Origin: Candidatus Latescibacterota bacterium
GTDB lineage: Bacteria > Krumholzibacteriota > Krumholzibacteriia > WVZY01 > JAKEHA01
Direction: 5' to 3'
Assembly (NCBI GenBank): GCA_963707635.1
Contig: OY970173.1
Span: forward strand, 1,184,001-1,248,000
DNA length: 64,000 bases
How positions within the stretch are numbered: position 1 is the stretch's first letter; every line of letters starts with the position of its first letter. The position numbers and the translations under genes were made by a program. The notes beneath the pieces are model-generated. The model worked only from the letters and a program-made list of their open reading frames with translations, did not search any database and was not told the DNA's origin. Below, one piece after another: positions 11,653-35,255 of the stretch.

Positions 11653-12551
11653 GGAAATCACGCTCGCTGCGATACTTCCTCGCTACCGTCCGCCTCGGCA
11701 GCGTGGGCGCCGCCGCCGCCGAGCACTTCGTCACCCAGCCCGCCGTGAGCCTGCAGCTGAAGAAGCTCGAGACCGAACTGGGGCAGAAGCTGCTGGCGAA
11801 GCGGGGCCGGCGCCTGGTCCCCACCGAGGCGGGGTCCGCGCTCGCGGCCCGCGCGGAAGACGTGGTGCGCGCGCTCGAGGAACTGGAAGCGGAGCTCCAC
11901 GGCATGAAGCAGCTCGAACGCGGCTTCCTGCGCGTCGGAAACACGGACGCAGCCAGCGTCTACGTGCTCCCGGAGGTCTATCAGGCCTTCCACCGCCGGT
12001 ACCCCGGCGTTCGCATCGAAATCACGGTCGGAGACACCGGCCGGCTGCTCGAGGCGCTGGCGGCGCGGCGCATCGAACTGGCGACCGCGACGCTGCCGGT
12101 CGACACCCACGGCCTGGTGGTGCGGCCAATATACCGCGAGGAGCTGGTGGCGGTGGCGCACCCGGGCGATCCCCTCGCCGTGAGGCGCGGCGTTACCCTG
12201 GCGGACCTCTCGCGCCACGGCGTCATCGCCTATCCCGCCGGATCGGTGACCCGGCGCATGATCGACGACGTCTTCCTCCGCCACGGCCAGGCGCTGCGGG
12301 CGCGCATGGAGATATCGAGCCCGGAGGCCATGAAGCGGCTCGCCGAGGCGGGGCTGGGGGTCAGCATCCTCCCGCGGCCCGTGGTGGCCGCCGAGATACG
12401 CCGCAAGGTGCTCAAGGTGATCCCGATTGCCGGTGTTCGCTTCGAGCGCGAAATCGGGATGGTGCACCGCGGTGAGAGCACGATGTCCCCGGCGGCGCGC
12501 GCGTTCCTGGAGATGGTGGAGACCCGGTTCCGCGCGGACTTTCGGAAGTGA
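11651..12551 (+). CDS. LysR family transcriptional regulator (+1 frameshift ~11660)
   Basis: removing one base gives MEIRSLRYF...VTQPAVSLQLKKLE HTH; C-terminal effector domain. Confidence 0.9.
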
Positions 12552-33032: not shown

Positions 33033-33872
33033 TCACTCCTGCCGCCACGGCGGATCCATGACGCAGCGGAATCCTATGTAGACCCACCGCTTGCCCGGTG
33101 ACGTGCTCTCGCGGTTGGCGCAGCGCAGGTACTTCGGAAACGTGTTCCAGGAGCCGCCGCGGTACACGCGCCGGTTGCTGCTGAACTGCTCGTTGCGATC
33201 CGGAATCCCGCGTGGAAGGACGTCGTTCGGGCCCCGTGGATAGGCTTCGTACTGATCGCTCACCCATTCCGCCGCGTTGCCCGCCATGTCGAAACATCCG
33301 TACGGACTCGTTCCCGACGGGAAGCTCATGACCGGCATGAGCCGGTCGGAGTTGTTGGCGCGGACGCGGTCGAAGCCCTCGCCCCAGGGGAACTCGCGCC
33401 CGTCGGTGCCCCGCGCGGCCTTCTCCCACTCGGCCTCGGTCGGCAGCCGCTTGCCCACGAACCGCGCGTACGCGGCCGCTTCCTCCCAGGTGATGCTGAC
33501 GATCGGCAGCCCGTCTTCGCCGATGCCGTAGCTCCCGTCGAGCCATTTGGGCGGGGCTTCCACCTTCATCGAGTCCATGTAGGCTTTGTACTCGGCGTTG
33601 GTCACTTCGTGGATGTCGATATAGAAATCGTCGACCCACACGTGCCGCTGGGGAAACTCGTCGACCTCGGCCTGCGTGCCAGTTCGGCGCGCCGAACTGC
33701 CCATCAGGAACTCACCCGCGGGAACGAAGACCATGTCCTGGACGGTCGGAACCGGGTCGGGCCGAAACGGTTGCGAAGACCCGGCCGGGGGGTCCGCCGC
33801 CCCCCGGTTCGCCTGCCCGATGGCGGCGCAGAGGAAGGCGGAGACGGCCAACAACAGGAGGACGGGTCGCAT
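33033..33872 (-). CDS. formylglycine-generating enzyme / SUMF1-domain secreted protein
   Basis: FLMGS, EVTN, RLPTEAEWEKAARG, DMAGNAAEW, RGGSW and GFRC motifs. Confidence 0.92.
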   Translation of the reverse strand: MRPVLLLLAVSAFLCAAIGQANRGAADPPAGSSQPFRPDPVPTVQDMVFVPAGEFLMGSSARRTGTQAEVDEFPQRHVWVDDFYIDIHEVTNAEYKAYMDSMKVEAPPKWLDGSYGIGEDGLPIVSITWEEAAAYARFVGKRLPTEAEWEKAARGTDGREFPWGEGFDRVRANNSDRLMPVMSFPSGTSPYGCFDMAGNAAEWVSDQYEAYPRGPNDVLPRGIPDRNEQFSSNRRVYRGGSWNTFPKYLRCANRESTSPGKRWVYIGFRCVMDPPWRQE

Positions 33873-34051
33873 AGGATCGGGGGGTCAGGACCTCCGGCGG
33901 GGTTGGAAGCGTCCGAATTGGGACACTCTAACGGCGCCGCGGCAGGTGAGTAAACCGTAATTCATCGTTCGTGTTATGGAGTCGGAACGGGTCACCGGAC
34001 TCCCGACGCCCGGCGTCGGCCGCCAGGCAATGGGTGGTGCACGGGTTGGGC

Positions 34052-34258
34052 CTAAAAGACTGGAAGGCAGCGCATCTTTCGACACGCTGCCTTCCTCTGG
34101 TGGGGACTAACTGAAAACGACGCGTTTTGGGACTAGGGACGCCGTTTCCTCTTCCTGACTTGGCTTTGCGATAAATTCTGTGAAGCCGATACCGTCCGCC
34201 TCAACCCATCCTAGTATCCGAACGGTTGCCGCATGTTCTTCCCACGGTACCGGCTTCG
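34052..34258 (-). ncRNA. candidate small RNA divergent from LysR
   Basis: promoter TTTACG-17-TATATT (34293-34265), 14-bp 5' stem, GUCCC repeats, terminal 15-bp GAAA-capped stem plus U tract. Confidence 0.6.
34054..34095 (-). terminator. terminator-like hairpin of the candidate sRNA
   Basis: GGAAGGCAGCG-UGUC-GAAA-GAUG-CGCUGCCUUCC followed by AGUCUUUU on the minus strand. Confidence 0.65.
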
Positions 34259-34328
34259 AGGATCAATATAGATCGGGTCTTGATATGCGTAAAATAGAAA
34301 ATGTATATTCTAGTTATAAGAAAAACAT

Positions 34329-35255
34329 ATGGCAGCCATCAACCTGAATCACCTGTTCTATTTCTACGAGGTCGCCCGTCACGGGAGCTTCACGCGGGCG
34401 GCGCGCGAGCTGCTGGTGTCCCAGTCCGCGTTGAGCGTACAGATCAAGTCGCTCGAGACCTCGCTGGGAGCCGCCCTCTTCGACCGCCGTCGCGCCGGCG
34501 TGTCCCTCACGGACGCGGGCCAGCGCGCCTTCACGGCTGCCGAACGGATTTTCGCGGACGTCGATCAACTGGTCGCCGATTTTCGCCAGGACGGCCGGCG
34601 CCTCCCGGGGACGGTGAACGTCGGGACGGTGAACAGCATCGGGATCTACATGCTCCCGGACCTGCTGACCGCGTTTCGGACCCGGTACCCGGATGTTCGC
34701 GTCCGTCTCGACTTCCGCGAGTCCGAGCGGGTGATGGATCAGCTCTACCAGGGAAAAACCGACCTCGCCCTCGTGCCCTGGCAGCGCGCGTATCCCGACC
34801 TCGCGCCGACGGTCCTGACACGACAGAAGCTCTTTCTGGTGGCCCCGCCCGATCACCCGCTGGCGGGTGCGGAAACGCTCTCCCCCCACGACCTCGAGGG
34901 GCACTCGTTCGTGGGGTACCACGAAGGCATGCACACCCGGGCGATGATCGACGCGCTGTTCAAACGCATGTCGCTCAACGTGGAGTACTCCATCGAGTCC
35001 TCCAACGCGGCGACGATCAAGCAGATGGTGCTGGCGGGGATGGGGATCGCTTTCCTGCCCGAGATGGCGGTGGTGGGCGAGTTGCGGCGCGGGCACCTCG
35101 TGCGCCTGGACGTGCCACCGCTGGTGATGCACCAGGACGTGACCCTCTATGTGCGTCGCAACCGCGCGCTCTCGCGCACGGCGACCGATTTCGTGAGCTT
35201 CCTGCAGGAATACTTCGACACGAAGAAACGGGTTTCGGAGAAGCGCGGGCACTGA
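34329..35255 (+). CDS. LysR family transcriptional regulator
   Basis: NLNHLFYFYEVARHGSFTRAARELLVSQSALSVQIKSLE HTH. Confidence 0.95.
   Translation: MAAINLNHLFYFYEVARHGSFTRAARELLVSQSALSVQIKSLETSLGAALFDRRRAGVSLTDAGQRAFTAAERIFADVDQLVADFRQDGRRLPGTVNVGTVNSIGIYMLPDLLTAFRTRYPDVRVRLDFRESERVMDQLYQGKTDLALVPWQRAYPDLAPTVLTRQKLFLVAPPDHPLAGAETLSPHDLEGHSFVGYHEGMHTRAMIDALFKRMSLNVEYSIESSNAATIKQMVLAGMGIAFLPEMAVVGELRRGHLVRLDVPPLVMHQDVTLYVRRNRALSRTATDFVSFLQEYFDTKKRVSEKRGH

Follow-up and report, generated by a model that had tools for sequence, protein, structure and literature searches.

A Conserved Small RNA Gene Divergent from a LysR-Family Regulator Gene in Candidatus Krumholzibacteriia, and Its Predicted Pairing with Three Unrelated Small RNAs

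Results

A Stand-Alone RNA Gene beside a LysR-Family Regulator Gene

The window that we analyzed is a stretch of 64,000 nucleotides (contig OY970173.1, positions 1,184,001 to 1,248,000), to which all coordinates lacking a genome label refer. A non-coding RNA gene, here called RNA1, lies in it between the divergently oriented gene for a LysR-family regulator and a gene for an FGE-domain protein. The features of the region are as follows.

34329..35255, plus strand: gene for the divergent LysR-family regulator, 308 aa (PF00126 and PF03466)
34272..34308: predicted LysR-type binding region, with dyads of the T-N11-A kind, over the RNA1 -35 box and the lysR upstream region
34265..34293, minus strand: sigma-70-type promoter of RNA1, TTTACG-17-TATATT, with a spacing and a TAnnnT pattern shared by 28 of 28 loci
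34258-34052, minus strand: RNA1, about 205 nt, with predicted ends; the 3' end may reach beyond 34036
34182..34257, minus strand: 5' domain of RNA1, closed by stem P1 (34257-34244 with 34195-34182), supported by covariation
34128..34140, minus strand: C-rich loop of stem P2, holding two GUCCC copies and conserved at the family level only, which can lengthen the duplex with RNA2 (see below)
34052..34095, minus strand: 15-bp GC-rich hairpin and short U-run of RNA1, supported by covariation
33925..33954, minus strand: predicted own promoter of the FGE-domain gene (33872-33033), separate from RNA1 and conserved in the genus

The original prediction, made from the letters of the window, had proposed a small RNA with this promoter and two long stems, and its main elements withstood analysis. 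The promoter is present at 34293-34265, promoter-like sites numbering three in 1.5 kb as against 0.4 in shuffled sequence. The 14-bp stem, with its one G-U pair, had been said to be specific to the minus strand. Indeed, the minus strand from 34262 to 34045 folds at -82 kcal/mol (z -3.56), which none of 200 shuffles equaled, whereas the fold of the plus strand is no better than chance (z -1.83; 10 of 200 shuffles). The 15-bp hairpin at 34095-34062, with two G-U pairs and a GAAA loop, and the three GGGAC sites of the plus strand (34103, 34129, and 34136) are likewise as described. Two details fared less well. In place of a small hairpin at 34114-34128, which is not kept in relatives, the predicted fold has an 11-bp stem with a 15-nt C-rich loop; and the UUUU said to follow the 3' hairpin does exist but lies 4 nt past the stem, and the RNA may extend farther. 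About 35 nt beyond this U-run, other members of the genus form another hairpin, in most cases with a U-tract, and the 3' hairpin and U-run of RNA1 are likely to be a terminator or a processing boundary.

Alignment of the regions upstream of LysR orthologs, which had been put forward as a check, revealed covariation. Both sides had changed at nine of the 13 pairs of stem P1, in which 97% of alignment cells are paired, and at 12 of 13 pairs of the 3' hairpin. For the 5' stem and the 3' hairpin together, 22 of 30 pairs had changed on both sides and 95.7% of cells pair, a level reached by none of 500 shuffles, with slid controls at most 48% paired.

A cmscan search, also suggested at the outset, matched RNA1 to no Rfam family: with Rfam 15 there were no matches at the gathering score anywhere in the window and none over RNA1 at E values up to 10. 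No paralog of RNA1 was found in the host genome by blastn, and RNA1 is neither 6S RNA nor SRP RNA, both of which are encoded elsewhere in that genome. Thirteen nucleotides of RNA1 (34103-34091, minus strand, running from the end of site E3, described below, into the hairpin) are identical to a stretch at G000:C1:1535008, which we take to be 16S rRNA; the match is probably fortuitous.

A 179-nt contig from a soil metatranscriptome spans 34036-34211 with three differences and ends 16 nt past the U-run. It is weakly suggestive of RNA1 expression, coming from one study that offers contigs only, with neither strand nor ends and with DNA not excluded. No contig of the same RNA run covers 34232-34539 or 33539-34000, an absence that proves nothing.

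RNA1 Is Conserved across One Order

The host genome (G000, 96% complete) belongs to an order of Ca. Krumholzibacteriia for which 36 genomes were searched, and 32 of these yielded RNA1. This tally consists of 28 loci, from the 30 best LysR loci among 41 genomes, and four further copies. RNA1 was divergent from lysR at 28 of those 30 loci, the other two being cut by contig ends. As for the four genomes of the order in which RNA1 was not found, one has its lysR gene cut at a contig end and three, which are 84-88% complete, have no close lysR match. A model of the 3' half of RNA1 scored 56-97 bits in 23 of 26 genomes of the order but no more than 26 bits elsewhere in the phylum (125 genomes), and two matches outside the order that we inspected proved to be hairpins lacking the motifs described below.

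Outside the stems, three segments of RNA1 are kept throughout the order: E1, which lies within the 5' domain; E2, which is rich in purines; and E3, immediately ahead of the 3' hairpin. The original prediction had instead singled out the repeated GUCCC motif as the functional unit. Order-wide conservation of this motif is limited to its last copy, within GUCCCCACC, and the two others are confined to one family. One copy of RNA1, that of genome G025, was found last and is absent from every alignment, so that it served as a held-out case.

RNA1 is thus a real, discrete, and conserved stand-alone RNA gene. Its conservation across the order and its covariation, together with the partners elsewhere in the genome to which we now turn, agree with the proposal of a trans-acting RNA divergent from a LysR gene.

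The LysR Neighbor

LysR-family proteins recognize dyads of the consensus T-N11-A, and the AT-rich dyad region over the -35 box of RNA1 is kept in 28 of 28 loci with sequence. In the host genome this box turned up at one other place, a gene end; in G025 none was found in the 120 nt available before RNA1. From this position and the conserved box we infer that the LysR protein activates RNA1. At the NCBIfam cut-offs the 308-aa protein belongs to no named subfamily. A second LysR gene, about 30% identical, lies at approximately 11667-12530 of the window (plus strand), and its ortholog is found 3-8 kb from the RNA1 locus in several genomes of family f2.

Three Conserved Sites Complement Three Small RNAs

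Candidate partners were sought by scanning the host genome for complements of the RNA1 motifs, and the matches in that genome are therefore selected ones. About 45 intergenic complements of at least 11 nt were obtained, of which five sites were examined in relatives. Because intergenic DNA is often conserved within a genus, we gave weight to order-wide cases only. The sites on RNA1 and the RNAs that they match are as follows.

34219..34235, minus strand: site E1 (AUGCGGCAACCG), complementary to a conserved loop region of RNA5
34144..34157, minus strand: site E2 (CAGGAAGAGGAAAC), complementary to the invariant apical loop of RNA2; its motif is common to RNA3
34097..34107, minus strand: site E3 (GUCCCCACCAG), complementary to two RNA4 G-boxes; 10 nt are identical to a C-box in the leader of a TonB-dependent receptor operon
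34161..34170, minus strand: linker site (CGCAAAGCCA), complementary to a conserved RNA4 segment, at the genus level only
G000:C1:2332710-2332830, plus strand (locus L052): RNA2, a rod of about 115 nt after rpmB, with an invariant CU-rich loop
G000:C1 ~313345-313075, minus strand (locus L103): RNA3, about 270 nt, with a sigma-54-type promoter
G000:C1 ~2569270-2568995, minus strand (locus L179): RNA4, about 275 nt, with a sigma-54-type promoter and a terminator
G000:C1 ~2008533-2008400, minus strand (locus L294): RNA5, a rod of about 130 nt with a near-invariant 25-nt segment

RNA2 through RNA5 are discrete genes, each with its own promoter and terminator, and like RNA1 they have no match among the curated families of Rfam 15.

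The longest intergenic complement of RNA1 is 14 nt and falls in the 24-nt apical loop of RNA2, whose gene carries a U-run and the promoter TTGACG-17-TAGACT. Searches recovered RNA2 from 29 of the 36 members of the order and from none of 125 other genomes; its loop core is invariant in 27 of 27. Across 25 genomes, 95% of alignment cells between this core and E2 are paired, and the calculated net pairing, after both RNAs are opened, is favorable in all 25. Watson-Crick swaps between RNA1 and RNA2 occur in G026, in the clade of G012 and G015, and between families (f2). RNA1 and RNA2 from one genome match each other better than when partners are exchanged between genomes (p 0.0002 over 23 genomes, among which kin are not independent); by group, p was 0.014 for family f2, 0.08 for the genus (not significant), and 0.33 for three others.

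The longest complement of RNA2 in the genome, at 16 nt, is not RNA1 but RNA3, which bears the same E2 motif. RNA3, whose promoter was recognized by the sigma-54 consensus, occurs in 36 of 36 genomes of the order and in none of five others. Several columns of its flank covary with the flank of RNA2, one of them being A-U in 16 and G-C in 11 of 28. No partner was found for its most conserved loop, which has two GCCCUU repeats, and a possible 8-9 bp pairing with RNA4 through a C-rich tract was rejected as no better than shuffles. Separately, a 15-nt match to the 5' hairpin of RNA3 lies at G000:C1:1369004 (plus strand), between genes and ahead of the promoter of the TonB-receptor operon.

RNA5 contains the longest intergenic complement of E1 in the host genome (13 nt). 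It has the promoter TTGACA-17-TATACT, a closing stem, and a U-run. Of the 36 genomes of the order, 32 yielded it, as against none of five others. In a 14-column helix between E1 and RNA5, 96% of cells are paired across 27 genomes; there is a compensatory swap in G026, and one flanking column has two Watson-Crick types (permutation p 0.013). The modeled net pairing after opening costs is favorable in 25 of 27 genomes. G025 has lost E1, and in G023, G026, and G034 the site is weakened. No partner for RNA5 other than RNA1 was found.

RNA4 is the best-scoring intergenic site for E3. Its gene lies directly downstream of a gene for a sigma-54 activator, its likely activator, and occurs in 32 of the 36 genomes of the order and in none of five others. 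One G-box (site a) is between hairpins, and the other (site b) is an invariant 7-nt loop. E3 itself contains a 9-mer that is invariant in 28 of 28 loci, and 99-100% of cells between its core and the G-boxes are paired across 25 genomes, with up to 11-12 bp at site a. Compensatory swaps between RNA1 and RNA4 were seen in G033 and G026, and net pairing is predicted to be favorable in 24 of 25 genomes. The linker site adds 9-12 bp with RNA4 in 14 of 14 genomes of the genus that have both RNAs; in the other 11 genomes it was not found at the same register. The held-out G025 copy keeps the C7 core of E3, with 10 bp at RNA4 site b, and 13 bp with RNA2.

Specificity of the Pairings

The pairings stand out when RNA1 through RNA5 and the TonB-receptor leader are compared all against all. 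Among the 15 pairs, five have perfect complements of at least 10 nt in most genomes: RNA1-RNA2 (22 of 25), RNA1-RNA5 (24 of 27), RNA1-RNA4 (17 of 25), RNA2-RNA3 (25 of 25), and RNA4-leader (10 of 16), compared with 1-5% for shuffles. The other ten pairs are near the shuffle level, the highest being RNA1-RNA3 (5 of 28) and RNA2-RNA4 (4 of 24). As modeled, opening E2 and E1 costs about 6-7 kcal/mol, and the costs for the three sites of RNA1 are nearly additive (median coupling 0.5 kcal/mol). The cores are nearly invariant, so that independent compensatory events are few, at about one to four per RNA1 pair, and kin are not independent. We consider it very probable that the pairings take place in the cell.

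These partners differ from those first proposed, namely targets carrying GGGAC or a protein. We found no convincing target for repeated GUCCC seeds at a ribosome-binding site among 2666 called genes, some of whose starts are wrong. The partners that are conserved prove instead to be small RNAs, and of the three binding motifs two fall outside those that had been named. Nor was an order-wide mRNA target of the RNA1 seeds found in gene scans of the host genome, and scans with the seeds of RNA2, RNA3, and RNA5 gave no outstanding match; all of these scans rest on our own gene calls, in which some starts are misplaced (that of the sigma-54 activator gene, for one, was called wrongly).

mRNA Candidates for RNA4 and Sequences Related to E3

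RNA4, in contrast, has predicted mRNA targets of its own. Ten nucleotides within codons 3-6 of the neighboring sigma-54 activator gene are complementary to the 5' loop of RNA4; 30 of 30 loci keep them without change, synonymous positions included, whereas the preceding codon varies. The G-boxes of RNA4 are complementary to a pair of C-boxes in the structured leader of an operon for a TonB-dependent receptor and a PorV-like protein, and these C-boxes persist in 25 of 36 genomes, with both families represented.

G000:C1:1369250-1369430, plus strand (locus L209): structured leader of the TonB-dependent receptor and PorV-like operon, containing both conserved C-boxes

The true start codon lies farther upstream than our own gene call puts it. 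RNA4 thus looks like an mRNA-targeting small RNA with predicted feedback on its own activator. E3 shares 10 nt, in the same sense, with the second C-box of the leader, and because of this identity RNA1 would copy a predicted target of RNA4. How RNA4 would act on the leader is less clear: the idea that the C-boxes hide the ribosome-binding site until RNA4 frees it was set aside, since no consistent change in opening energy was seen in 15 of 16 leaders and modeled pairing leaves predicted access to that site unchanged. A complement of the CCUAGUCC loop in the same leader was rejected as a target because it is not conserved.

Several other sequences deserve mention. About 100 nt before the start of the sigma-54 activator gene is a second conserved motif, which may pair with the 5' stem of RNA4. 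A copy of GUCCCCACC at G000:C1:16929 (minus strand), 22 nt before a start codon and beside the ribosome-binding site, is a candidate direct target of RNA4. An intergenic leader of about 370 nt before a gene for a large protein (locus L050, minus strand) has two complements of the CCUAGUCC loop, at G000:C1 ~2539419 and 2539246. At locus L385 (G020:C15:29087-29192, minus strand) a 3' UTR has an E3-like motif directly before the terminator and is a possible 3'-UTR-derived mimic directed at RNA4.

Finally, a 13-nt complement of E3 was found in an element upstream of a transketolase gene.

G000:C1 ~928215-928345, plus strand (locus L325): structured element ahead of the transketolase gene, bearing this complement

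The complement is invariant in the 13 aligned genomes of the genus, in some of which a terminator follows. The element has no Rfam match, and no homolog was found outside the genus among 17 pattern matches that we inspected. It may be riboswitch-like, another small RNA, a fourth partner of RNA1, or a target.

Discussion

A Model for RNA1

RNA1 is a discrete non-coding RNA with conserved and, by prediction, accessible complementarity to other small RNAs, as would be expected of a sponge. In sponges of the RosA and SroC kind the region of the partner that is bound is also the one used on mRNA; this is predicted for the G-boxes of RNA4, no mRNA target having been found for RNA2 or RNA5. On balance we favor the interpretation that RNA1 is a LysR-induced, target-mimicking sponge that titrates several small RNAs by base pairing. 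According to this model, the divergent LysR protein would switch RNA1 on through the box overlapping its weak -35 element. E3, joined by the linker site in the genus, would then capture the G-boxes of the sigma-54-type RNA4, and in so doing would free the leader of the TonB-receptor operon, whose C-box RNA1 copies. Meanwhile, RNA2 and RNA5 would be held by their loops, at E2 and E1 respectively, through stoichiometric pairing, and RNA3, bearing the same E2 motif, would compete with RNA1 for RNA2. The near-consensus promoters of RNA2 and RNA5 suggest constitutive expression, and if so these RNAs would set a threshold on free RNA1; given that no mRNA target was found for either, they may equally be thresholds against RNA1 and RNA3. 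The chaperones Hfq (PF17209) and ProQ (PF04352), as well as CsrA (PF02599), were not found in the 96% complete host genome. Because Hfq was not found, the burden would fall on exposed loops and duplexes of 10-17 bp. The genome encodes RNase III, by which the duplexes could be cleaved.

A bolder formulation, which we advance tentatively and think likelier to be wrong than right, makes RNA1 the hub of a chaperone-free, all-RNA layer of logic, in which three address sites would read or silence three unrelated small RNAs and so link a LysR signal to sigma-54 signaling and to outer-membrane receptor expression. RNA2 and RNA5 would then regulate only small RNAs, and in its strongest form the layer would be one multi-RNA particle.

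Alternatives

The direction of control could be the reverse of the one we propose. RNA1 would then be an mRNA-targeting small RNA and RNA2, RNA5, and perhaps RNA4 dedicated anti-small RNAs, with RNA2 restraining RNA3 as well, much as RosA is described as acting on both RoxS and FsrA. The rods themselves invite such a reading: RNA2 and RNA5 are compact, have near-consensus sigma-70 promoters, and show one main conserved pairing segment, which RNA1 and RNA3 explain fully and for which the mRNA scans offered nothing; and the transketolase element could be a leader targeted by RNA1. But that element is confined, as far as our searches reached, to the genus, the scans for order-wide mRNA targets of RNA1 came up empty, and E3 has the sense of the TonB C-box, which fits mimicry, while RNA4 has predicted mRNA targets of its own. 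We therefore regard the reversed direction as improbable.

It is considerably less likely that RNA1, RNA2, RNA4, and RNA5 are built into a stable multi-RNA particle, with all sites jointly occupied and a function other than titration. That the sites lie in separate domains with nearly additive opening costs, and that all five RNAs are found only in the same order, would suit a scaffold. Against it, RNA1 and RNA3 would compete for one loop of RNA2, as would RNA1 and the TonB leader for RNA4; the promoter types differ among the RNAs; no pairing was found among RNA2, RNA4, and RNA5; and E1 is lost in G025.

Nor do we put much weight on a protein decoy, in which the C-rich and GGA motifs would bind an RNA-binding protein that also acts on the TonB C-boxes, making the complementarities secondary. 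That RNA1 and the TonB leader share GUCCCCACCA in the same sense, and that E2 has two GGA motifs, would suit such a decoy, but compensatory changes between separate genes are unexpected under protein binding, and the host genome, 96% complete, yielded no CsrA, Hfq, or ProQ. RNA1 also differs from the decoys CsrB and RsmZ in having just two GGA motifs, both in one tract, in a genome in which PF02599 was not found.

Scarcely credible, lastly, is a role for RNA1 as leader or attenuator in front of the FGE-domain gene, perhaps encoding a 7-codon leader peptide: that gene does follow on the same strand in most loci, the U-run behind the hairpin is short, and an alternative stem overlapping the hairpin can form in some members of the genus, but the FGE gene was not found beside RNA1 in seven genomes (G024, G027, G028, G030, G031, G033, and G035), in three of which (G024, G028, and G033) the next gene is a convergent TPR gene, and it has its own conserved promoter in the genus, with a second terminator ahead of it in relatives. 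The original prediction had named such read-through as grounds for abandoning a small RNA; yet RNA1 does not hold the fixed position before a co-oriented regulated gene that a riboswitch or attenuator would. Its statement that there is no open reading frame beyond seven codons is right for AUG starts and wrong for GUG and UUG starts, from which frames of 21-66 codons overlap RNA1 on the minus strand, none of them conserved. In relatives the AUG frame stops after six to about 100 codons, and the AUG is missing in three of 28 loci, so that a small peptide was ruled out by the poor conservation of its frame.

Comparison with Known Systems

Small RNA genes that adjoin LysR genes are familiar from GcvA-GcvB and OxyR-OxyS, and the LysR-linked small RNAs AbcR, GcvB, and OxyS repress mRNAs in an Hfq-dependent manner. 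The predicted partners of RNA1, by contrast, are small RNAs, in a host in which Hfq was not found. An adjacent LysR gene with a box at the promoter of the small RNA, the arrangement typical of such systems, is present at 28 of 28 RNA1 loci. It also characterizes VtlR/LsrB-AbcR, for which the published account (PMC7486931) places abcR1 downstream of vtlR, whereas RNA1 is divergent from its LysR gene. In its predicted pairing with the mRNA of its own activator, RNA4 resembles the Vibrio Qrr RNAs, which repress luxO (PMC3262071), but there is no sequence relation, and RNA4 is about 275 nt with separate seeds.

Among the closest parallels to RNA1 is RosA of Bacillus subtilis, described (PMC8216469) as a stand-alone sponge of about 229 nt under CcpA that binds RoxS and FsrA through their mRNA-pairing regions. 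Both are stand-alone RNAs under a transcription factor (predicted for RNA1) with several small RNA partners, and RosA, too, has a potential 7-codon open reading frame. RosA, however, uses G-rich tracts against the C-rich tracts of two similar small RNAs, whereas RNA1 has three unrelated motifs for three unrelated RNAs. RNA1, unlike RosA as there described, adjoins its likely regulator, and it matches no Rfam family. RsaI of Staphylococcus aureus has independent pairing domains and binds RsaG, RsaD, and RsaE; as reported (10.1101/278127), a G-tract serves for small RNAs and a CU-rich domain for mRNAs, whereas the order-wide motifs of RNA1 all have small RNA partners. In enteric sponges of the SroC type, as summarized in one account (10.1101/2025.09.11.675593), a copy of a target site titrates one specific small RNA, and most are cut from mRNA or tRNA precursors; E3, as a copy of the TonB leader C-box, is comparable, but RNA1 has its own promoter and three predicted partners.

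In the open literature we found no account of RNA1 through RNA5 or of a sponge for three small RNAs in uncultured bacteria, although supplements to surveys of non-coding RNA motifs could list them. RNA1 appears, then, to define a new RNA family and, somewhat more probably than otherwise, a new three-site kind of RNA sponge. Its predictions specify the pairing bases exactly and come with natural compensatory alleles, for what would be multi-layer RNA regulation without a known chaperone. Complement searches with conserved non-coding RNA motifs can, it seems, map small RNA networks in uncultured phyla. The sponges compared here are described in the cited accounts as having either a single small RNA partner or several that resemble one another and are bound through one kind of tract, and it was ligation or pull-down experiments in model bacteria that revealed them; the three-site sponge predicted here, with a network of at least five new RNA families, emerges from genome comparison alone in an uncultured lineage.
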